Source: Candidatus Omnitrophota bacterium
GTDB taxonomy: Bacteria > Omnitrophota > Gorgyraeia > 1-14-0-20-64-10
Direction of reading: 5' to 3'
Length of the DNA stretch: 64,000 nt
Assembly (NCBI GenBank): GCA_023818695.1
Contig: JAMWCF010000001.1
Span: 83,306 to 147,305, forward strand
Made by a program: the position numbers and the translations under genes. Position 1 is the stretch's first letter. Each line of letters starts with the position of its first letter. The notes beneath the pieces were generated by a model that saw only the letters and a list, made by a program, of their open reading frames with translations, was not told the DNA's origin and did no database searches. Shown here in pieces: positions 2,725 through 60,445 of this stretch.

Positions 2725-2802
2725 AACCGAGTTAATTATACTCTGAACGCGTTCTCTGAATCCATTTACAGCCCGTCGATTTCCAGCTAAACTAATGCCT
2801 AT

Positions 2803-3083
2803 TCCCCTGTAGCTCAGTTGGTAGAGCAGGTGACTGTCATCGCGCGGCAGCCCCGCCCGGAAACGGCCGGGTGCAACAGCGAGTAAATTCAGGGAACCCC
2901 TATCGCTTGATAGGGCAATCTTGAGCCAAGCCCGCCTTCAATAAGGCGAGGAAGGTGCAGAGACTAGAGACTCGCCGCCTAAATCCCATCGTGGGACATG
3001 GCGATGGTATAGTCCTACCCCCTCGGTAACGAGGGAAGGTCGTAATCACCGGGTCCGAGGTTCGAGCCCTCGCGGGGGAGCCA
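2803..3083 (+). tRNA. tRNA-Asn(GUU) interrupted in the anticodon loop by a 205-nt intron
   Basis: Exon 1 is 2803-2837 (acceptor TCCCCTG, D-arm GCTC/GAGC, anticodon stem GGTGA, CTGT). Exon 2 is 3043-3083 (TAA, TCACC, GGGTC, T-arm CGAGG-TTCGAGC-CCTCG, CGGGGGA, G, CCA). They join to a 76-nt cloverleaf with loop CUGUUAA, closely resembling E. coli tRNA-Asn as I remember it. Confidence 0.85.
2838..3042 (+). ncRNA. group I self-splicing intron (IC3-like, bacterial tRNA-intron type), no ORF
   Basis: The 5' exon ends in U (2837) and the intron ends in G (3042). Exon CUGU (2834-2837) can pair with intron GCAG (2847-2850), giving P1 with a U-G wobble at the splice site. Core strings aaattcaggga, gagccaagc, gaaggtgcagagactaga (2951-2968) and tatagtcc (3008-3015) match the Azoarcus/Anabaena tRNA intron cores as I recall them. 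There is a terminal GNRA hairpin ccctcgGTAAcgaggg. Confidence 0.8.
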
Positions 3084-3119: not shown

Positions 3120-3155
3120 GCGCCGTGGTTCACGCGTGAGCCACGGCGCTTTTTA
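3120..3155 (+). terminator. intrinsic terminator after tRNA-Asn
   Basis: 9-bp stem gcgccgtgg / ccacggcgc followed by ttttt. Confidence 0.7.
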
Positions 3156-3480: not shown

Positions 3481-4662
3481 TCAGATGAACGATGAGAGTT
3501 GCCTGATGAGAGAGGGAAGCGGCAGGACAGTGATGGTGAGATCTGCGTGGCGTCGCGTGAACGCGCGATCTGCGTCCTGGGCGACCAGAAAGTTCTGGCC
3601 CTTGGGGTAGGCATGGCGAAATGACCGCAACCCGGCGAGATCCGGATCACCCGACGACCATTTGCATTCGATGGCGATGGGGTCGCGGCCGCGCGGTGCC
3701 AGCACAAAGTCTACCTCATGATCATGCTTGTCACGCCAGTACCGGATGTCACGCAGCTGGAGGCAGCCTTGCAGTTCGTTGAGCACGAAATGCTTCCACA
3801 GCAGTCCGAAGTCTTCCCGCCGAAGCTGATGCCAGCCACGGTGGTAGCAGACAAAGCCTGTATCGAAGGCGTACACCTTAGGAGCCGAGACGATTTCAGT
3901 GGAACGATGCGTGCTGAACGGACGGATCACATGCGCGACCAGGGTGGTTTCCAGCGCTTTGAGGTAGTTCCGGATCGTCCCATGGGCGACCTCGCATTCC
4001 TTGGCGAATTTCTGCGCCTGGAAGATCCCGGCGCTCCGGGCCATCAGGAGTTCAGCAAACCGCTGGAACGAATCCCGACGTTCCAGCCGGAAGAGCTCCT
4101 GGATGTCTTTGGCCCAGTAGGCGTCCATCCACTCCTGGAAGTCGCGCTCCGGCAGGTCTCGAGAAAGGAAGAACGGCGGCAATCCCCCGCGAAGCAACCG
4201 GTGTTCGAGCCGCTCGTAGTGGAAATCCAACAGATCGGCCAGGATCATGGGCGTCAACCAGAGCACGGTTTTCCGTCCGGTGAGCGTATCCCGGAATTTG
4301 CGGGAGGCGCCGAGGGTCGAGGAGCCGGTCGCCAGGATGCGGACAGTCGGGAAATGATCAGCCGCGATCTTGAGCACTTGGGCCGGGTCGCGCAATCGAT
4401 GGATCTCATCGAGCACCACGCGTTTGCCCTTCATGTCTGCGAGGAAGCCCTCGGGATCTTCCAGGAGGCGTCGCACACGGGGGATTTCGCAATCGAAGTA
4501 TTCCACATCTCCCAGGCTATGGGCGAGCGAGGTCTTTCCTGTCCGCCGTACCCCGGAAAGCCAGAGAATGGAGCGGCGCTGCCAACCGTTCTCGATCTCC
4601 TTAAGCCAGTGTTTCCGTTTGACGAGCTGTTCCATCAGGAATAACATTACCATATAGTTCAA
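3481..4662 (-). CDS. AAA-type ATPase with DUF4143-like C-terminal domain
   Basis: Walker A GVRRTGKTSLAHSL, Walker B-like VVLDEIH. The overall layout matches the widespread ATPase/DUF4143 (COG1373-like) family often found on mobile islands. Confidence 0.75.
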   Translation of the reverse strand: MNYMVMLFLMEQLVKRKHWLKEIENGWQRRSILWLSGVRRTGKTSLAHSLGDVEYFDCEIPRVRRLLEDPEGFLADMKGKRVVLDEIHRLRDPAQVLKIAADHFPTVRILATGSSTLGASRKFRDTLTGRKTVLWLTPMILADLLDFHYERLEHRLLRGGLPPFFLSRDLPERDFQEWMDAYWAKDIQELFRLERRDSFQRFAELLMARSAGIFQAQKFAKECEVAHGTIRNYLKALETTLVAHVIRPFSTHRSTEIVSAPKVYAFDTGFVCYHRGWHQLRREDFGLLWKHFVLNELQGCLQLRDIRYWRDKHDHEVDFVLAPRGRDPIAIECKWSSGDPDLAGLRSFRHAYPKGQNFLVAQDADRAFTRRHADLTITVLPLPSLIRQLSSFI

Positions 4663-4844
4663 CTATTTGCAATCATGATGATATATAGAACACGTCCATT
4701 GACTGGCGTTTCGAGCCGTGGAGCATACCCATCGGCGCCTGCCGCTCTGGCTCGGCGCAAGCTGCGACCTCATAAGGAACGCGCGCGGATGGGAGTGAGG
4801 TAAGCCCGGCATGGTACGAGAGAGGCCGAACCGTGTTGTAAACA

Positions 4845-4869
4845 GGTTCGATCCCTAGGAGGGGAGCTA
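4845..4869 (+). repeat. degenerate copy of the tRNA-Asn 3' end (possible decayed att site)
   Basis: ggttcgatccctaggaggggagcta versus tRNA 3059-3083 ggttcgagccctcgcgggggagcca: 20/25 identical. There is no foldable T-arm or acceptor partner, so it is not a tRNA. Confidence 0.4.
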
Positions 4870-5529
4870 ATACATCCTCTCATCAAACCGAGAGGATACA
4901 GAAGACCCGCCAGAGCGACCCTTTTTAGGGTTGCCTGGCGGTGTTTTTATTTCAGGCAGGTTGTAGAACGAGATGCTGATCTTCGACGGGTCTTTGTGAT
5001 AGACGATTTTTTTGATAAGCAGATGCACCAAGTCCCGCTGTTTTTCAAAGGGCAGAACGTCAAGAACCGCCCCAAAGTATTGAAGATTCTGGCAGACGAC
5101 CGCAGGGTCAATGACCTTCTGTTTTTCTTTGGCCATTTCTTCGTCAATCTCGGCCAGCTTGGTTTTCAGCGTTTCCCGTTGCCCGTCCAGGACAAGCAGT
5201 TTTTCCTGAAGGATGGCGAATTTCTTTTTCCCAATGGCCTTCATAAGCGGGGCGGCCTCTCGGTCTACTTGCTGAAGCCGAGCCACGATTCGGTTCCGCT
5301 CAGCCCGAAGCTCAGGGATTCGCTTTTTGGCCATCTTCACGGCCAACGCTGTGATTTTTTCCACCAAGTCTTGACGCTCGGATAAGAAGCGCAGTCGCTC
5401 TATCACCAAAGCGTCCAACGCCCTGGCCGAAATGCGTCTGATTGAGCAAGCTGTCTTGTCGGCATGACCGACTTTCGTGCATTGATAATAGAGATAGGTC
5501 TTTGAATTGCTCCCCGTTTGAACTGGACT
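4867..5529 (-). pseudogene. large serine recombinase, C-terminal fragment only (catalytic N-terminus missing)
   Basis: The frame is open from 5529. It reads ...YLYYQCTKVGHADKTACSIRRISARALDALVIERL (zinc-ribbon region), then a long coiled coil (track ORF 4867..5418). No resolvase catalytic domain lies upstream. The IS3 remnant abuts it. Confidence 0.6.
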
Positions 5530-5571
5530 TTAGAACAAGAGAGAATGGGTTCAGTGCAGACGGAGGTCAAG

Positions 5572-6412
5572 ATGGCGCAATGACGCAAATGGGATTCTAA
5601 GACCAAAGCGCTCATCGTGCTCCAGGGGTTGAAAGGCAAGCCGGTGGCGGAGCTGTGCACCGAGCACCAGATCAGCCAGGTCCAGTTCTACCAGGGGCGC
5701 GATCAATTCCTGGCCAACGCTCCCAAGCTGTTCGAGCTGCCTTTAGCCACCCAGCGGGAAGCCCGCTTGGCGCACGAAAACGCCAAGCTCCGTTCCCTCG
5801 TGGGGAGCTGACGCTGGAGTTAAAAAAACTCGACGAGGTGCTCGCGTGAGACACCGCACCTCGGTCCAGGTCGTCCAGCGAAACCACGGATTGCTCCAGC
5901 GCATCCAGGCGCTTAAGGCCGAGCGCCCCTTCTGGGGCTACCGGCGCATCTGGGCCTACCTGAAGTTCGTGGATCGGCTGGCCGTCAACAAGAAACGGGT
6001 TCTGCGGCTGATGCGCCAAGCCGATCTGCTGGTCAAGCCCAACCGGAGGCTCCGCCAGCAGTTTCCGGAGGGCGCTCGAGGTCACGATGTACACCTTATG
6101 TCCGACAACGGCTGCCAGCCGACCTCGGTGGTCTTCATGGCTGCTTGCAACCGCCTGGACGTTTACCAGACCTTCACCAGCTACAACAACCGCCGGGGCA
6201 ACGCCGACACTGAGCGGATGGTCCGGACGATCAAAGAGGAGCTAATCTGGCTGCGGGAGTGGACGAGTCCCTTCGAGCTGGCCGAGGCACTCGAAGCCTG
6301 GATCAAGCGGTACAATGCCGAGTACGTGCACTCGGCCCTGGGTTACAAGAGTCCGATTCAATGTGAATTGGCTTTTAAAAACAGCCGCCAGACTCAGTTC
6401 CTCCCAGCTTGA
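5572..6412 (+). mobile_element. IS3-family insertion sequence remnant (orfA/orfB both disrupted)
   Basis: orfA-like MAQ-TGA(5581)-RKWDSKTKALIVLQGLKGKPVAELCTEHQISQ..., with an extra frame change before GELTLELKK. An A7 slippery run lies at ~5822-5828. orfB (5846..6412) keeps the N-terminal and C-terminal integrase-core flanks (ERPFWGYRRI..., YNNRRGNADTERMVRTIKEE, YNAEYVHSALGY) but lacks the central DDE region. Confidence 0.7.
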
Positions 6413-40118: not shown

Positions 40119-40980
40119 CGATTCCTTCCGTTACTGCGCGTGGTTGACGCGCGTTTCCCGCAGCAATTTCGCGATGGGACTGAAAGTCCTGCCCAGGCCC
40201 CAGAGGGAGGCGATGGAGGTCGTCTATGCTTTCTGCCGGGCGGTGGATGATGTGGTGGATAAACAGGCAGGCAACCCGGTCGTTTTCGACGCGGAGGAGG
40301 CGGGCAGAGAATTGGACCGATGGCGCGGTGAGCTGCATGCCGGTTATCCGACCCACCCGATCGCCGTGGCGCTGACGCAGGTCATCCGGGATTACCGGAT
40401 TCCTCTTTCCTATTTTGAGGATTTGATCGCCGGCTGCCGGATGGATCTGGTCCAGCGCCGTTACGCGACCTTCCAGGAGCTGGAGGTCTACTGCCGGCAT
40501 GTTGCCTCCGTGGTCGGGCTGATCTCCATCCGGGTTTTCGGCTGCCGGCATCAGGCCTCCGAGGATTACGCCGTGAATCTTGGGATCGCACTGCAACTGA
40601 CGAACATCCTGCGAGATCTTAAAGCCGATCTGGCGCGCGGGAGGGTTTATCTGCCGCAGGATGAACTGAAGCGGTTCGGCTACACCGAGAGCGACTTGTT
40701 CTCCTGCCGTTATTCGGAGCCGTTTTTGCGGATGATGTCTTTTCAGTGCGCGAGGGCGCGCGCCTTCTTCCGGAAAGCCCATGAAGCCCTTCAGGCGGCC
40801 GGCGAACAGAGGAAGCTTCTTCCCGCCCAGATGATGGGTGCGGTCTATTCGCAGATCCTCAACCGGATCGAGAAACTCCGGTACGATGTTTTTTCAAGCC
40901 GGATCACCGTGCCGCGAGCCCGGCAGACGGCGACGGCTCTGGTCCTTCTGGTCAATGGCGGGCGCTGGAACTACGCATGA
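40102..40980 (+). CDS. hpnD: presqualene diphosphate synthase HpnD
   Basis: FRYCAWLTRVSRSNFAMG, VVYAFCRAVDDVVD, LQLTNILRDLKADL. Confidence 0.85.
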   Translation: MALYRDDSFRYCAWLTRVSRSNFAMGLKVLPRPQREAMEVVYAFCRAVDDVVDKQAGNPVVFDAEEAGRELDRWRGELHAGYPTHPIAVALTQVIRDYRIPLSYFEDLIAGCRMDLVQRRYATFQELEVYCRHVASVVGLISIRVFGCRHQASEDYAVNLGIALQLTNILRDLKADLARGRVYLPQDELKRFGYTESDLFSCRYSEPFLRMMSFQCARARAFFRKAHEALQAAGEQRKLLPAQMMGAVYSQILNRIEKLRYDVFSSRITVPRARQTATALVLLVNGGRWNYA

Positions 40981-42419
40981 GCAGGCCTCATGTCATCGTC
41001 ATCGGCGGTGGTTTCGCAGGGTTATCGGCCGCCGTTTCCCTGGTGGACGCTGGGGTTCGGGTGACCGTTCTGGAGGCCCGCGTCGGCCTAGGCGGCAGGG
41101 CCCGCTCTTTCACCGATCCGGCCACCGGCGAGTTGGTTGACAATGGTCAGCACCTTCTGATCGGGGGATACCATGAAACCAGGCGGTTCCTCCTGCGGCT
41201 TGGGACGGTGCAGCACTTGCGGTTTCAGCGCCGGCTCCAGGTCCGTTTCGTGGAAAAGGGGGGCCGCTCTTTCACTCTGGACTGTCCTCCGCTGCCGGTT
41301 CCGTGGCACCTGGTTGCCGGTCTGGCGCGGCTCGGATCGCTCTCTCTGCGGGATAAGGCCGGTTTGCGGGCCATGCTCCGCGAGGGGACCCGTCTCCTGA
41401 AAGGGGGAGTTTCCTCCGAAAGGGAGTTGGATGAGGAGACGGTGGAGGGATGGCTGATCCGGCTCGGCCAATCCGCCCGGATCCGGTCCGCTTTCTGGTA
41501 TCCGCTGACAGTGGCGGCTCTCAATGAAGATCCGCGGCGAGCCTCCGCGCTCGGTCTCTGGGCAGTTCTGAAGAGGATGGTTTTTTCCCAGGCGCAGGAC
41601 GCTTGCCTGGGGGTGCCGACCGTGGGGTTGACCGATCTGTACGCCGCTTCCGCCGCCCGCTTGGTCCAGGAGGCGGGCGGTGAGATCCGCTTGAACACCT
41701 CCGTGACCGAGGTGGTTTTGGATGGCGCAGAGGCGCGGGGGATCAGGACCGCCGGCGGCGATCTCCTTTTCGCCGACGCGGTCATCAGCTCGCTGCCTCC
41801 GGGAACGCTGAAGAAGATTCTGCCGGCTTCCTGCCGGGAATCCGACCCGTTCTTCTGCCGTCTTGACCGTTTCAAGACATCGCCGATCGTCTCCATGAAT
41901 CTGTGGCTGGACCGTCCGATCACGCCGGATTGGTTCGTGGGGTTTGTCGGGACGCGGATTCAGTGGCTTTTTAACAAGCCGGCCATTCTGGGAAACGGGA
42001 AAAGCAGCATCAGCTACGCCTCCCTCCTTATCAGCGCGGCGCATGAGTGGGTCGGTTGTTCAAATGAAGCCCTTCTCCAGGTCGCTTTGGAGGACCTCTG
42101 GTCTTGTTTTCCACATGTGCGGGGGGTTCGTCCGGTCAAATTCCAGGTGGTGAGGGAAAGAGAAGCGACTGTTTCGCTCACGCCGGGGATGGAACGGTTC
42201 CGGCTTTCCGCCCGGACTCCATTGGAGGGCTTTTTTTGCGCCGGCGACTGGACCGATACCGGCCTACCGGCTACCATTGAATCGGCTGTGATCAGCGGCC
42301 GTCAGGCTGCGCAGCAGGCGCTGAAATGGCTTGCCTCATCCGCCTGCGGTGGTAAAATACCTAAATTATCCTATGGATCTTCGGTCCTACCTGAAAAACA
42401 GGCAACTTCTGATCAATAA
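40977..42419 (+). CDS. hpnE: hydroxysqualene dehydroxylase HpnE (FAD-dependent amine-oxidase fold)
   Basis: VIVIGGGFAGLSAAVSL..GVRVTVLEARVGLGGRA dinucleotide fold. ATGA overlaps hpnD. Confidence 0.8.
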   Translation: MSRPHVIVIGGGFAGLSAAVSLVDAGVRVTVLEARVGLGGRARSFTDPATGELVDNGQHLLIGGYHETRRFLLRLGTVQHLRFQRRLQVRFVEKGGRSFTLDCPPLPVPWHLVAGLARLGSLSLRDKAGLRAMLREGTRLLKGGVSSERELDEETVEGWLIRLGQSARIRSAFWYPLTVAALNEDPRRASALGLWAVLKRMVFSQAQDACLGVPTVGLTDLYAASAARLVQEAGGEIRLNTSVTEVVLDGAEARGIRTAGGDLLFADAVISSLPPGTLKKILPASCRESDPFFCRLDRFKTSPIVSMNLWLDRPITPDWFVGFVGTRIQWLFNKPAILGNGKSSISYASLLISAAHEWVGCSNEALLQVALEDLWSCFPHVRGVRPVKFQVVREREATVSLTPGMERFRLSARTPLEGFFCAGDWTDTGLPATIESAVISGRQAAQQALKWLASSACGGKIPKLSYGSSVLPEKQATSDQ

Positions 42420-43197
42420 GGCACTTGGGAGATATCTGCCTCCTGCCAGGGAGTACCCCCCTTCTGTCCACCAGGCGATGCGCTACAGCGTGCTGGGAGA
42501 AGGCAAACGGATCCGTCCGATTCTGGCTTTGGCCGCCTGTGAGGCGGTGGGCGGCAGCGTCAAGAAGGCCCTTCCGGCCGCCTGCGCGCTGGAGCTGATT
42601 CACGCCTATTCCCTCGTCCACGATGACCTGCCGGCCATGGACGACGATGATGTCCGACGGGGCAGACCTTCCTGCCACAAGAAATACGGCGAGGCACTGG
42701 GGGTTCTGACCGGCGACGCCTTGCTGACTTACAGCTTTGAGCTGCTGGCCTCCGGCGGCAACGGGGATTCGGCCGTCCGGCTGAAGGTGATCAGGGAGAT
42801 CGCCAAGGCGATCGGCACCCAGGGGATGATCGGCGGGCAGGTGGTGGATATCGAGTCCGGTTCCGGCCGTTCCCGGGGCGCCGTCATGGAGTACATCAAT
42901 TCCAGGAAGACAGGGGCCCTGATCTCCGCTTCCGTCCGGATCGGCGCCCTGATGGGCGGGGCGACACCGAAACAGTACCAGGCCATCTCCTCCTACGGGG
43001 ACAAGGTCGGATTGGTCTTTCAGTTGGTCGACGATCAATTGGACAGGGATGGAGCCGTCCGGCTCTACGGTGTGCGGGCGGTCCGCGAGAGGGCGCAGTC
43101 CCTGACCCGTTCGGCGGTGAATTCCCTTCGGATGTTCGGTTCAAAGGGGCGTTCGCTGGAGGCCCTCGCTTTCTTTATCCTCACACGGAATTCCTAA
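42373..43197 (+). CDS. ispA: farnesyl diphosphate synthase (polyprenyl synthetase)
   Basis: LIHAYSLVHDDLPAMDDDDVRRGRPSCH is nearly identical in pattern to the E. coli IspA FARM. The second motif is FQLVDDQLD. Confidence 0.85.
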   Translation: MDLRSYLKNRQLLINKALGRYLPPAREYPPSVHQAMRYSVLGEGKRIRPILALAACEAVGGSVKKALPAACALELIHAYSLVHDDLPAMDDDDVRRGRPSCHKKYGEALGVLTGDALLTYSFELLASGGNGDSAVRLKVIREIAKAIGTQGMIGGQVVDIESGSGRSRGAVMEYINSRKTGALISASVRIGALMGGATPKQYQAISSYGDKVGLVFQLVDDQLDRDGAVRLYGVRAVRERAQSLTRSAVNSLRMFGSKGRSLEALAFFILTRNS

Positions 43198-43200
43198 ATA

Positions 43201-45114
43201 ATGGAAAAACTGACGGATAAGATCAACAGCCCGGCTGATTTAAGGAAGCTTCCGCAATCGTCCCTGGTTCAGGTCGCCCAGGAAATTCGCCAGATCATCA
43301 TCGATAAGGTTTCCAAAACGGGGGGGCATTTCGGCGGCCCGCTGGGCGCGGTTGACCTGGTGGTGGCTCTCCATTACGTCTTCAACACACCGGAGGACCA
43401 GCTGGTGTGGGACGTCGGTTATCAGGCCTACGCTCACAAGATTCTCACCGGGCGGCGAGATCGTTTCGGAACGCTGCGCCAGCTGGGGGGAATCAGCGGT
43501 TTTCCCCACCGGGAAGAGAGTTCGTACGATCTGTTCACCATCGGGCACGGCGGCACCTCCATTTCGACCGCGCTGGGGCTGGTCCAAGCGCGCGATCACC
43601 AGGGAAAATCCAACAAGGTCGTCGCGGTCATCGGGGACGGTTCTCTTCCGGAGGGGATGGCCCTGGAAGGGTTAAATCACGCCGGCCACTTGAAGAGCGA
43701 CATCCTGGTGGTGCTCAACGACAACAACATGGCGATCGCCCCCGCCGTGGGGGCCCTGACCAACTGCTTCAACCGGATCATCACTGATCCCCTGTACAAC
43801 AGGGTGCGGCGGGAAGCCGAGCGGGCGATGCGGCGGGTTCCACGCCTCGGGTTCCGGATGATCCGTGCCGCCAAGCGGCTGGAGGAATCCCTGAAAAACC
43901 TGCTGGTGCCGGGGATCATTTTTGAAGAGCTCGGGTTCCGCTACTTCGGCCCGGTGGACGGGCACAACATGGACAAGCTCATCAAGATGCTGGGGGAGAT
44001 GAAGAAGCTCCCGGGGCCGAAGTTGCTGCATGTTTTGACCGTCAAGGGCAAGGGGTACTCCTTCGCGGAGAAACACCAGTGGAAGTACCACGGGGTGACG
44101 CCGTTTGACCCGGCGACGGGGGAGTTCCTGAAGAAACCCTCCCCGGAGACCTTCACGCAGCGTTTCGGCAAGACGCTCATCGACATCGCCAAGAAGGATC
44201 CGTCGGTGGTGGCGATCACCGCGGCCATGCCGGACGGCACCGGTCTGGTGGAATACGCGAAGGAGCTACCAAACCAGTTTTACGATGTGGGGATGTGCGA
44301 GCAGCACGCCGTCGGACTGGCCGCCGGATTGGCCCGCGGCGGCATGAAGCCGGTCGCCGCGATTTATTCGACCTTTCTGCAGAGGGGGTTCGACCAGGTA
44401 GTGCATGACGTTTGCATCCAGAATCTGCCGGTGATTTTCGCCATGGACCGGGGCGGCCTGGTGGGGGATGATGGCATCACGCATCACGGTGTGTTCGACA
44501 TCGCCTACTTGTCACCGATTCCGCGCCTCACCCTGATGGCCCCGAAGGACCTGGATGAACTGGAGGCGATGATGCGTTTCGCCATGGAGTCGTCCGGCCC
44601 GATCGGCTACCGGTATCCCCGCGGTTCCATGCTGCGGTTTTATCCCGAGCTGGCCATCCCTAATCCGGGAAAGACCCCTCCGATCATCCTCGGGAGAGCG
44701 GAGAAGATCGTTTCCGGTTCGGACGTGGCGATCATCGCGCTGGGGAGCATGGTTTACCCGGCTCTGGAGGCCCATGTTCTTTTGCAGGATCAGGGGATCT
44801 CCGCCACGGTCGTCAACGCCAGGTTCATCAAGCCGTTTGACGAGGAGTTGTTCGCCTCCCTGCTTCAGGAGCATCGGGCGGTGCTGATCGTCGAGGAGGG
44901 GGTGACGCGGGGCGGTTTCGGCATGGCGGTGATGGAGCGGCTGGAGCCGCTTCGGTCGAACGGATTCCGTTTCCGGGTGATGGGGTTGCCGGACCGGTTC
45001 TTTGAGCATGGCAAAAGGGAGCTTCTCCTGCAGCAGGCCGGTTTAACGACAGACGGCATCGTGGCCGCCGCCAAAGAGCTGTTGCAGGAACGAAGTCCGG
45101 TCTATGTCCGTTGA
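43201..45114 (+). CDS. dxs: 1-deoxy-D-xylulose-5-phosphate synthase
   Basis: GGHFGGPLGAVDLVVALHYVF, VIGDGSLPEGMALEGLNHAG, full length of 637 aa. Confidence 0.95.
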   Translation: MEKLTDKINSPADLRKLPQSSLVQVAQEIRQIIIDKVSKTGGHFGGPLGAVDLVVALHYVFNTPEDQLVWDVGYQAYAHKILTGRRDRFGTLRQLGGISGFPHREESSYDLFTIGHGGTSISTALGLVQARDHQGKSNKVVAVIGDGSLPEGMALEGLNHAGHLKSDILVVLNDNNMAIAPAVGALTNCFNRIITDPLYNRVRREAERAMRRVPRLGFRMIRAAKRLEESLKNLLVPGIIFEELGFRYFGPVDGHNMDKLIKMLGEMKKLPGPKLLHVLTVKGKGYSFAEKHQWKYHGVTPFDPATGEFLKKPSPETFTQRFGKTLIDIAKKDPSVVAITAAMPDGTGLVEYAKELPNQFYDVGMCEQHAVGLAAGLARGGMKPVAAIYSTFLQRGFDQVVHDVCIQNLPVIFAMDRGGLVGDDGITHHGVFDIAYLSPIPRLTLMAPKDLDELEAMMRFAMESSGPIGYRYPRGSMLRFYPELAIPNPGKTPPIILGRAEKIVSGSDVAIIALGSMVYPALEAHVLLQDQGISATVVNARFIKPFDEELFASLLQEHRAVLIVEEGVTRGGFGMAVMERLEPLRSNGFRFRVMGLPDRFFEHGKRELLLQQAGLTTDGIVAAAKELLQERSPVYVR

Positions 45115-47074
45115 CATATCCGCCCGACCCTTGAAAGGATCCCCGGTGTCCGTCTCGGTGAGCCCTTCCGTGCTGGAGGCGCTGGAGAGCGCGATCGGGA
45201 AAACCTCCGCCCTCCTCTGCAGGCAGCAGGACCCCGACGGTTTCTGGGTCGGCGAACTGCAGGCCGACACGACGCTGGAATCGGACACCATCAAGTTGCG
45301 GCACCTGCTGGACAGGGTTGACCGCCGGAAACAGGAAAAGCTGGTCTGGACAATCCTCAAGAACGAGCTTCCGGACGGAGGGTGGCCGATTTACGCGGGC
45401 GGCCCCCCTGAAATCAACGCGACCGTCAAGGCCTACGCGGCCCTGAAGCTGGCCGGCACTCCGGATGACGATCCGGTCCTCAAGCGCAACAGGCAGGTTA
45501 TTCTTCGCTTGGGCGGGCTGGAAAGGATCAACAGCTTTGAGAAGACCTACCTGGCCCTGTTAGGCGCCTATCCATGGAGCCAGGTCCCAGTTCTTCCTCC
45601 CGAGCTTATTTTTCTGCCCTCCTGGTTTTACTTCAACATCTATGAGGTTTCCTATTGGTCCCGCACCATCCTGATTCCTCTGGCCGTGATGCACGCGACG
45701 AAACCTTGTTCCCCCTCTGCGCGACTCTGCTTGGATGAGCTGTGGGTGAATCCCAGGCTGAAGCGGGCGACCATCACGAACTTCCAGAAGGGAGGGGCTT
45801 TTTGGAGGGTTTTCTTCCTCTTCGCCAACCGGATTTTGAGGATCCACGAGAGTTTGCCGTTTAAGCCGCTGCGGGCAAAGGCGCTGCGAGCGTGTGACCG
45901 CTGGATCAATGAGCGGCTCGTCGAAACAGACGGTTTGGGGGCGATCTTTCCGGCGATGATGAACGCCATTTTCGCCTTGAAGGGGTTGGGCTACCGGGAT
46001 GGAGACCCCCTCTATGAGAAGCAGATCAAGGAGATGGAGCGGCTCGAAGTTCCGGATGAGGAGCTCGGTCTGAAAATCCAGCCCTGTTTTTCGCCGGTCT
46101 GGGACACGGCGCTGGCGATGTACGCATTGGGAAGGACCAAAGCCGCTTCCGTGGCAGGACCCCTGCGGCGGGCGGTTGACTGGCTCCTTGCGCGGGAGAT
46201 CCGCCAGTGGGGGGACTGGGTTGTTAAGAATCCCCGTGCGAAACCGGGTGGCTGGGCTTTCGAGTTCAAGAATCCTTTTTACCCGGACGTCGATGACACG
46301 GCGCAGGTTCTTCTGGGGCTCCATGAAGTTTATCCCGTCGGGCGTCAGCCGCAGGACGTCAGGGGGGCGTTCGAAAGAGGGCTCGAGTGGATTTTGAGCA
46401 TGCAGAACAGGGACGGGGGGTGGAGCTCTTTCGATAAGAATAATAACTGCCTTCCCTTAACCCATTTCCCGTTCGCGGACCACAACGCCATGCTGGATCC
46501 ATCCGCTTGCGACATCACCGGCAGGATCCTGGAGCTTTTGAGCGCCATCGGCGTGCCGAAGACCCATCCGGCGGTCCAGCGGGCGAGAGCTTTTCTGCTT
46601 GAACGGCAGGAGGTGGATGGCAGCTGGTTCGGGCGCTGGGGGGTCAACTACATCTATGGCACATGGCTGGCCCTCCGGGGTCTTCGCGCCGTCGGGGAAC
46701 CTATGGATTCTTTCCGGTATCAGCGGGCCGGCCGGTGGCTGATCAGCCGGCAGAACCCGGACGGCGGCTGGGGTGAAAGCTGCCGCTCGTACGACGACCC
46801 CGGCGTGAAAGGGCAGGGGCCTTCCACCCCCTCGCAGACTTCATGGGCTTTGATGGCCCTCATGAGCTGCGGGTTGGTGGCGGAACCCTCTTTTCAGAGG
46901 GGGCTGGAGTACCTCCTGAACCATCAAAAACCGGATGGCGACTGGCAGGAGGAATGGTTCACGGGAACCGGTTTCCCGCGGGTCTTTTATCTGCGCTATC
47001 ACATGTACAGAATCTATTTCCCGCTTCTGGCTCTGACCGAAGCCCGGGATATCTTGAAAAGGACCGAGGGATAA
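45104..47074 (+). CDS. shc: squalene-hopene cyclase
   Basis: Catalytic DVDDTA, multiple QW repeats ([28 protein letters not shown]), [16 protein letters not shown]. Confidence 0.95.
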
Positions 47075-60329: not shown

Positions 60330-60445
60330 CGTCCGAAAAGGTAAATCCGCCGTAAGGTGGAGACGCAAAGCCGCGGATCCTGGAGAGCGGATCGGTAAAA
60401 ACAGCCTAAATCCAGGACTGCCGGGCTGCCGAAGCGCGAACCGAT
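60330..60445 (+). promoter_or_regulatory. c-di-GMP-I (GEMM-I) riboswitch-like aptamer
   Basis: 60340-60372 GGTAAATCCGCCGTAAGGTGGAGACGCAAAGCC has the same length and pattern as the Vc2 segment GGCAAACCAUUCGAAAGAGUGGGACGCAAAGCC (GNRA-capped hairpin plus the GACGCAAAGCC signature). 60420-60434 GCCGGGCTGCCGAAG compares with Vc2 GCGGGGUUACCGAUG. A 7-bp P3-like stem joins tcctgga and tccagga. Confidence 0.55.

Follow-up and report, generated by a model that had tools for sequence, protein, structure and literature searches.

The tRNA-Asn gene and its intron

The window, i.e. the whole 64,000-nt (64-kb) stretch of DNA analysed here, contains near its start a tRNA-Asn(GUU) gene of Candidatus Omnitrophica whose anticodon loop is interrupted by a group I intron, Table 1. 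The gene consists of a 5' exon of 35 nt, an intron of 205 nt and a 3' exon of 41 nt including the CCA. When the intron is excised in silico, ARAGORN identifies the spliced sequence as a tRNA-Asn(gtt) of 76 nt with a 7-bp acceptor stem, the anticodon loop CUGUUAA, the discriminator G73 and an encoded CCA. The preliminary description of this locus had proposed the same gene, with a 205-nt group I intron after position 35 and the same mature loop, and both the spliced tRNA and the covariance-model search described below bear this out. It had also noted that a U precedes the 5' splice site and that the intron ends in G. Of the five splice offsets tried, from -2 to +2, only offset 0 combines this U(-1) and a terminal guanosine (omega-G) with the loop CUGUUAA. 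The omega-G is G3042, as this is the sole offset that fits both U(-1) and the canonical mature loop.

With default settings, ARAGORN reports 0 tRNAs in the whole 64-kb window, and it detects no other tRNA gene there, as had been stated before. With introns allowed, a run that the preliminary description had proposed as a check, the gene boundaries agree with ours, but the intron is set 2 nt too early and the gene is labelled Thr(cgt), i(33,205). This label is an artefact of the tool; group I splice sites are not part of the ARAGORN model.

The tRNA-Asn gene looks like a transcription unit of its own, since it has a promoter-like site on its 5' side and a terminator-like hairpin on its 3' side, see Table 1. 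One promoter-like site was observed upstream of the gene against 0.3 expected from shuffles, and by its match to the consensus it may function as a promoter. The pre-tRNA is predicted to fold with -118.9 kcal/mol (z = -3.1 versus shuffles), and its minimum-free-energy structure includes the acceptor stem, the D arm, P2, P4/P5, P6a and P9.

Table 1. The split tRNA-Asn gene, the helices of its intron, the flanking signals and the related introns with an HNH-like ORF. Positions are those of the window.
Feature	Position	Strand	Evidence
Promoter-like site TTTACA-17 nt-TAAACT, sigma-70-like, stops 9 nt before the tRNA 5' end	2765..2793	+	consensus match only
tRNA-Asn 5' exon (tRNA positions 1-35): acceptor 5' strand, D arm, anticodon-stem 5' strand, C32 U33 G34 U35	2803..2837	+	ARAGORN cloverleaf, spliced sequence
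Group I intron, 205 nt, no ORF	2838..3042	+	RF00028 match, homologue alignment, covariation
P1: exon CUGU 2834-2837 / guide GCAG 2847-2850, splice-site wobble U2837·G2847	2834..2850	+	RF00028, pairing
P2 hairpin CCCGCCCG/CGGCCGGG, one C·C mismatch, GAAA tetraloop at 2860-2863	2852..2871	+	pairing, covariation
P3 5' strand GCGAGU, partner ACUCGC 2970-2975	2879..2884	+	pairing, covariation
P4 (UCAGGG/UCUUGA) and P5 (CCC/GGG), A-rich J4/5 and J5/4	2889..2924	+	pairing, homologues
P6 (GCC/GGU) and P6a hairpin	2925..2956	+	pairing, homologues
P7 5' strand G-A(bulge)-GACUA, partner UAGUCC 3010-3015, pseudoknot helix	2960..2966	+	pairing, homologues
P3 3' strand ACUCGC, directly after P7	2970..2975	+	alignment
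P8 (CGCC/GGCG), CCUAAA...CAUGG, distal hairpin	2976..3003	+	pairing, homologues
P7 3' strand UAGUCC	3010..3015	+	pairing, homologues
P9.0 (ACC 3017-3019 / GGU 3038-3040), P9, C3041, omega-G3042	3017..3042	+	pairing, covariation
P9 hairpin CCCUCG-GUAA-CGAGGG	3020-3035	+	pairing, covariation
tRNA-Asn 3' exon: U36 A37 A38, anticodon-stem 3' strand, variable loop, T arm, acceptor 3' strand, G73, encoded CCA	3043..3083	+	ARAGORN, spliced sequence
Intrinsic-terminator-like hairpin, 13 pairs (9 G-C), then TTTTT	3120..3154	+	sequence
Introns of 456-711 nt with an HNH-like ORF	L123, L128, L129, L130, L138, L149, L163 and about 30 other metagenome loci		

Architecture of the intron

The Rfam group I model (RF00028, Intron_gpI) matches positions 2828-3036 (+) with 64.2 bits and an E-value of 5.7e-14, where the gathering score is 50, and the match spans the full model, positions 1-253. 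The covariance-model check proposed earlier is therefore significant. The further features of group I membership are also present: the U(-1)·G pair in P1, the omega-G, and a P3-P8 core with the P3/P7 pseudoknot and a bulged A in P7.

Seven helices (P3, P5, P6, P7, P8, P9.0 and P9) are fully paired. G·U wobbles are found in P1 and P4, and P2 contains its single C·C mismatch. One of the two G·U pairs in P4 is unique in its alignment column. An additional pair, C2838-G2846, is possible in P1, and the loop L1 has 7-9 nt. A loop of this size leaves no room for a reading frame, and the intron has no ORF. The 3' strand of P3 follows P7 directly, so that the intron has no P7.1/P7.2 insert. We take P7 to form the guanosine-binding site, as established for group I introns in general. 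No clear P10 pairing with the 3' exon is seen in the window intron.

The CCUAAA...CAUGG element in P8 resembles the 11-nt GAAA-tetraloop receptor and is a putative receptor. In the homologue alignment the family consensus of this element is CCUAAG...UAUGG, and the window intron has A/C where the putative receptor otherwise has G·U. In the Azoarcus structure, L2 docks on the P8 receptor and L9 docks on P5. The L2 and L9 loops and the corresponding motifs of the window intron are placed as in Azoarcus, and by analogy they may dock in the same way.

Covariation among homologous introns

We aligned 48 of the shorter tRNA-Asn introns, including that of the window, with MAFFT. The structure tested was the canonical group I scheme together with the P7 pseudoknot and the tRNA anticodon stem. 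Across the 48 introns, standard pairs occupy 96.4% of the cells, compared with 35.7-42.6% when the partners are slid. Changes on both sides of a pair occur in 34 of the 53 pairs (12-24 for slid partners), and the covariation score is 0.543 (0.06-0.12 for slid partners). Not one of 500 shuffles gave values as high as those observed.

Compensatory changes are found in P2, P3, P5, P6a, P8, P9.0, P9 and the anticodon stem. All five tested pairs of P2 are compensatory, with 99.2% of the cells paired, as are five of the six pairs of P3 and all six of P6a. All six pairs of P7 are invariant and paired in the 48 homologues, and P1 is invariant as well, with the CUGU/GCAG pairing and its U·G wobble, already recognised in the preliminary description, present in 48/48. 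A pattern of this kind marks a ribozyme whose fold is maintained by selection, and the sequence in the window conforms to it.

Instead of P6 and P7, RNAalifold predicted a local helix of GGU with ACU. We rejected this helix as spurious; the canonical P6 and the pseudoknotted P7 are 100% paired.

Comparison with known tRNA introns

In the preprint by Williams, a screen of about 80,000 genomes extended the 4 known types of intron-interrupted bacterial tRNAs to 21; the classical four types are Leu.3Ug, Arg.5Ug, fMet.2Ug and Ile2.5Ug (bioRxiv 10.1101/2020.01.27.920355). The hosts named in the preliminary description, Leu(UAA), fMet, Ile(CAU) and Arg(CCU), correspond to these four. In this numbering, 4Ug denotes an insertion behind the fourth nucleotide of the loop, with U(-1) in front and omega-G at its end, and the seed alignment of the preprint includes Pam37.Asn.4Ug as well as Tyr.4Ug, Asp.4Ug and Lys.4Ug (bioRxiv 10.1101/2020.01.27.920355). 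The window intron lies in tRNA-Asn(GUU) after the fourth loop nucleotide, CUGU↓UAA (the arrow marks the intron site), and has the U/G ends. It is thus of the Asn.4Ug type, catalogued in 2020, and neither the host tRNA nor the site is new, contrary to the earlier suggestion.

Pam37.Asn.4Ug shares with the window intron the host Asn GUU, the insertion after U35, the U(-1) and omega-G, and the P1 pairing CUGU/GCAG. The core strings of J3/4-P4, P6, P7 and J8/7 are common to both, and the identity is 75% over the shorter sequence. Pam37 and most of the homologues from genomes have an additional stem following P2, a P7.1/P7.2 insert, or both, whereas the window intron and its clade have neither. The Asn.4Ug class has been described bioinformatically only, in the preprint (bioRxiv 10.1101/2020.01.27.920355). 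Our literature search returned no report of demonstrated splicing for any Asn.4Ug intron. Searches on group I introns in tRNA-Asn gave only papers on mitochondrial genomes, and nothing relevant when Patescibacteria was added.

Judged by its predicted architecture, the window intron is most similar to the Azoarcus tRNA-Ile intron, which also has 205 nt, also lies in a tRNA anticodon loop, and self-splices efficiently without protein (PMC13168695). The similarity in size to the minimal bacterial introns, noted in the preliminary description, therefore holds. Both introns are built from P1, a P2 capped by GAAA, P3-P8, P9.0 and one P9 hairpin closed by a GNRA loop, and both lack P5abc and P7.1/7.2. 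They have in common the strings AAAUUC..GAA, GCCAAG, AAGGUG.AGAGACUAGA and AUAGUCC, at an overall identity of 65%. The Azoarcus intron differs in its host, tRNA-Ile2, in its position after loop nucleotide 5 (CAU↓) and in its guide sequence. Its self-splicing is proven experimentally, whereas that of the window intron is predicted.

The tRNA-Leu(UAA) intron of cyanobacteria and plastids is likewise a group I intron of the anticodon loop with the same conserved core, and the tRNA-Leu seeds Ncf2 and Sel1 are 71% identical to the window intron over the shorter sequence. The core strings that had been said to be shared with the Azoarcus and cyanobacterial introns are therefore real. The tRNA-Leu intron differs in its insertion after U34 (Leu.3Ug), in its greater length of about 220-250 nt and in a more elaborate P9 region. 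Over all Williams seeds, the identity to the window intron is 56-77%, the best being Mpe6.Lys.4Ug (77%) and Pam37.Asn.4Ug (75%). From the architecture, which matches Azoarcus, subgroup IC3 would be likely; seed identity does not single out IC3, as the IC3 seeds (65-77%) do not score above the P7.1/7.2-bearing Pam37 (75%).

The Synechocystis tRNA-fMet intron encodes the homing endonuclease I-Ssp6803I. It shows that a group I intron of a bacterial tRNA gene can carry a homing endonuclease, and so serves as a precedent for the HNH-like ORFs among the relatives of the window intron. The endonuclease is of the PD-(D/E)XK type rather than HNH-like, the host tRNA and the site are others, and the window copy is without an ORF. 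Group I introns of tRNA-fMet have been cited previously (PMC8450103).

Spread of the intron among genomes

Species-representative genomes were scanned with a pattern that combines the D-arm of a tRNA with CTGT and, 101-131 nt further downstream, the core GGTGYAGAGAC. Sites were assigned directly, by the rule CTGT↓...G↓TAA with 4-bp anticodon-stem complementarity and a T-arm motif. Among the matches listed, 113 of the 122 sites are tRNA-Asn CUGU↓UAA introns, with the window's own intron as a control; the others are mostly cut off by the ends of the loci. The Asn(GUU) 35/36 intron is therefore present in more than 100 bacterial species, and the survey of relatives proposed earlier shows how common this insertion is.

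The hosts among the matches listed are mainly Patescibacteria (Saccharibacteria, Paceibacterota, Nomurabacteria and others). Further hosts are found in Omnitrophota, Spirochaetia, Elusimicrobia, WOR-3, Stahlbacteria, Binatia, Actinomycetota, a Thermostichales cyanobacterium and several proteobacterial MAGs. Omnitrophota MAGs are among the nearest relatives of the window intron. This agrees with the DXS protein of the window (43201-45114), for which a 100% identical NCBI protein is annotated as belonging to a Candidatus Omnitrophica MAG; the matches that follow, with 76-83% identity, are also assigned to Omnitrophica or Omnitrophota wherever a name is given. Flank proteins from the window gave no tblastn matches in the 120 genome loci. 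The identity of PEPC homologues reached at most 68%, and at the two contigs examined either the tRNA-Asn neighbourhood or the DNA was lacking.

In intron mode, ARAGORN assigns a wrong intron length in about 17 homologues, which leads to calls of "Asp", "Tyr" and "Thr". Tools for tRNA detection run in this mode systematically mislabel tRNA-Asn genes with the CUGU↓UAA intron.

Seven loci from Burkholderiales/Betaproteobacteria MAGs (L012, L030, L032, L043, L094, L106, L119) were called tRNA-Asp(gtc) by ARAGORN, which made the intron too short by 7 nt. On manual reading, the introns end in ...GCGTTG↓TAATCCG, i.e. they are tRNA-Asn CUGU↓UAA introns, and the tRNA-Asp(gtc) assignment was rejected. 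In Ca. Vecturithrix sp., a 7.29-Mb contig (L069:4897-5408) contains two tandem tRNA-Asn genes. Both are interrupted at the identical site by group I introns of 250-251 nt.

Among the IMG/VR contigs that match the tRNA, CTGT and core pattern (L242-L262), 15 of 21 carry tRNA-Asn CUGU↓UAA group I introns. Since these contigs are catalogued as viral, the Asn intron travels also on putative large phages. Several of the IMG/VR introns lie within arrays of 4-12 tRNA genes (e.g. L243, L248).

A minimal clade with HNH-like ORFs

An insert of 16-60 nt corresponding to P7.1/P7.2 lies between P7 and the 3' strand of P3 in 42 of the 48 aligned introns. The six without it are the window intron and L045, L052, L062, L072 and L078, and these share the sequence GCAGAGACUAGASACYCGCYRCCU. 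Metagenomes were scanned with this string as the query. Among the matches listed, 102 of 120 are tRNA-Asn CUGU↓UAA introns, hence the minimal clade is specific to tRNA-Asn and to this site. The rest of the matches listed comprise 17 without a tRNA call, 16 of them at a contig end, and two that are something else.

The lengths of the minimal-clade introns among these matches are bimodal, with groups of 195-362 nt and 401-711 nt. About 40% of the members listed have an HNH-like ORF in the loop of P1, Table 1. Of the 41 listed clade introns of at least 450 nt, 39 contain a P1-loop ORF of at least 95 aa and 38 contain the CxNCH motif. The P1-loop ORFs have 107-177 aa and are open in frame from the start of the intron (39/41); the commonest form has about 105-118 aa. 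At its 3' end the ORF reads across the internal guide sequence, with ..KLAAS encoded by AAGTTAGCAGC (AAG TTA GCA GC). Broken P1-loop ORFs are found in L146 and L164.

Two P1-loop ORFs were scanned against Pfam, and both match HNH over the whole profile, with 22.3 and 17.3 bits at a cut-off of 21.4. From these scores the HNH assignment of the ORFs of the relatives is plausible but borderline. The ORF may encode an uncharacterised homing endonuclease that targets tRNA-Asn genes.

The cores nearest to the window intron among the matches listed are 86-87% identical to it, and two of the best three carry the ORF. The window intron itself lacks the endonuclease ORF expected of a mobile intron. Since other members of the minimal clade carry the HNH-like ORF, the window copy most likely represents an ORF-less form of a homing intron. 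It may be ORF-less through loss or may never have had the ORF; loss is the direction that we prefer.

Proposed splicing of the tRNA-Asn precursor

With its group I fold, its U(-1)·G pair and omega-G, an intact mature tRNA and covariation throughout the family, the window intron is very probably a functional, self-splicing Asn.4Ug intron. The splicing chemistry, and splicing in vivo, are what family membership and established group I chemistry would predict. The locus would then be a monocistronic tRNA-Asn(GUU) gene in which a compact group I ribozyme lacking an ORF separates U35 from U36. After folding of the primary transcript, the exon CUGU would pair with the intron guide GCAG, so that P1 forms with its U35·G wobble. 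The first attack, on the phosphate after U35, would come from an exogenous guanosine bound in P7, and the terminal G3042 would then take the place of the guanosine in the P7 site. Finally, the free 3'-OH of U35 would attack after G3042, joining the exons to a normal tRNA-Asn that would be open to anticodon-loop modification and charging. The anticodon loop is absent before splicing, so that modifications of the loop, e.g. queuosine at G34, would be added only afterwards. The window copy itself would be an inherited, passive self-splicing passenger.

A different placement of the splice sites in the loop, with another host tRNA, could be read from ARAGORN, which in intron mode reports a tRNA-Thr (CGU) with the intron after position 33, i(33,205). 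This placement keeps a U(-1), but the intron would end in U instead of G and the P1 register would be destroyed, while CUGU/GCAG with the U·G wobble is invariant in all 48 homologues. The discriminator G73 and the tRNA body fit tRNA-Asn, and a program without a group I splice-site model makes similar misplacements across the homologues. We regard this reading as having next to no chance of being correct. It is also improbable, to a lesser degree, that the intron is a decayed relic that does not splice, the tRNA-Asn copy being a pseudogene and an intronless gene elsewhere serving Asn decoding. The window covers 64 kb of a contig of about 697 kb and leaves room for a second tRNA-Asn gene; a few pairs of the window copy are weakened, and the homing-endonuclease ORF is absent. 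Against decay, all core helices and all family-invariant nucleotides, among them the invariant P1 and P7, are preserved. The mature tRNA has a canonical form, and the promoter-like and terminator-like signals are kept. An intronless Asn gene lies nearby in only 1 of 240 related loci, although these loci are short.

Some organellar group I introns require a protein cofactor or chaperone. The window intron could be functional and have such a need in vivo, a reading that overlaps with self-splicing and that we consider unlikely. It would be consistent with a P10 that is absent or weak and with the lack of peripheral stabilising domains such as P7.1/P7.2 or P5abc. On the other hand, the window intron has a high GC content and carries GAAA (L2) and GUAA (L9) tetraloops placed as in Azoarcus, whose tRNA-Ile intron of the same 205 nt self-splices efficiently in the absence of protein (PMC13168695). 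Our preferred reading is that of a self-splicing Asn.4Ug intron.

We put forward more tentatively, and with considerable doubt, that the window copy is the only tRNA-Asn gene of its genome, and/or that it is the ORF-less minimal end-state of an uncharacterised, tRNA-Asn-specific lineage of homing introns, whose mobile members carry an HNH ORF in the P1 loop with its 3' end over the guide. As the sole tRNA-Asn gene, it would make all Asn decoding depend on a 205-nt ribozyme. The lineage, if it exists, would provide a second natural ribozyme of Azoarcus size and a new family of homing endonucleases targeting a tRNA gene.

Significance

The main value of the finding lies in annotation: the tRNA-Asn gene is missed by ARAGORN in its default mode and mislabelled as Thr in intron mode. 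Because standard tRNA finders miss the intron-bearing gene, a genome like this one would seem to be without tRNA-Asn. The survey found the Asn(GUU) 35/36 intron widely distributed among ultra-small or symbiotic lineages (Patescibacteria, Omnitrophota), and also in tRNA arrays on contigs catalogued as viral. This spread bears on estimates of genome completeness and on how tRNA introns move. The GC-rich, ORF-less variant of 205 nt would also be a convenient minimal ribozyme for testing.

Other features of the window

The only Rfam matches in the window are the group I intron and an unrelated c-di-GMP-I riboswitch aptamer (RF01051) at 60330-60433 (+), with 58.3 bits and an E-value of 8.3e-09. An ORF with a PilZ domain (1444-2064) adjoins the tRNA-Asn gene. 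Downstream of the gene are an AAA_14/DUF4143 ATPase (3481-4662, -), a 183-aa ORF of recombinase-like appearance and no Pfam match (4867-5418, -), and a fragment of an IS3-like HTH_21+rve_3 transposase (5846-6412, +). The genes at 3481-6412 may be remnants of an element inserted beside the tRNA; a search of the window for an att-type repeat of the tRNA 3' end, allowing up to 3 mismatches, was negative. An isoprenoid/hopanoid cluster at 40977-47074 encodes an amine-oxidase-type FAD enzyme, a polyprenyl synthetase, DXS (43201-45114) and a squalene-hopene cyclase.
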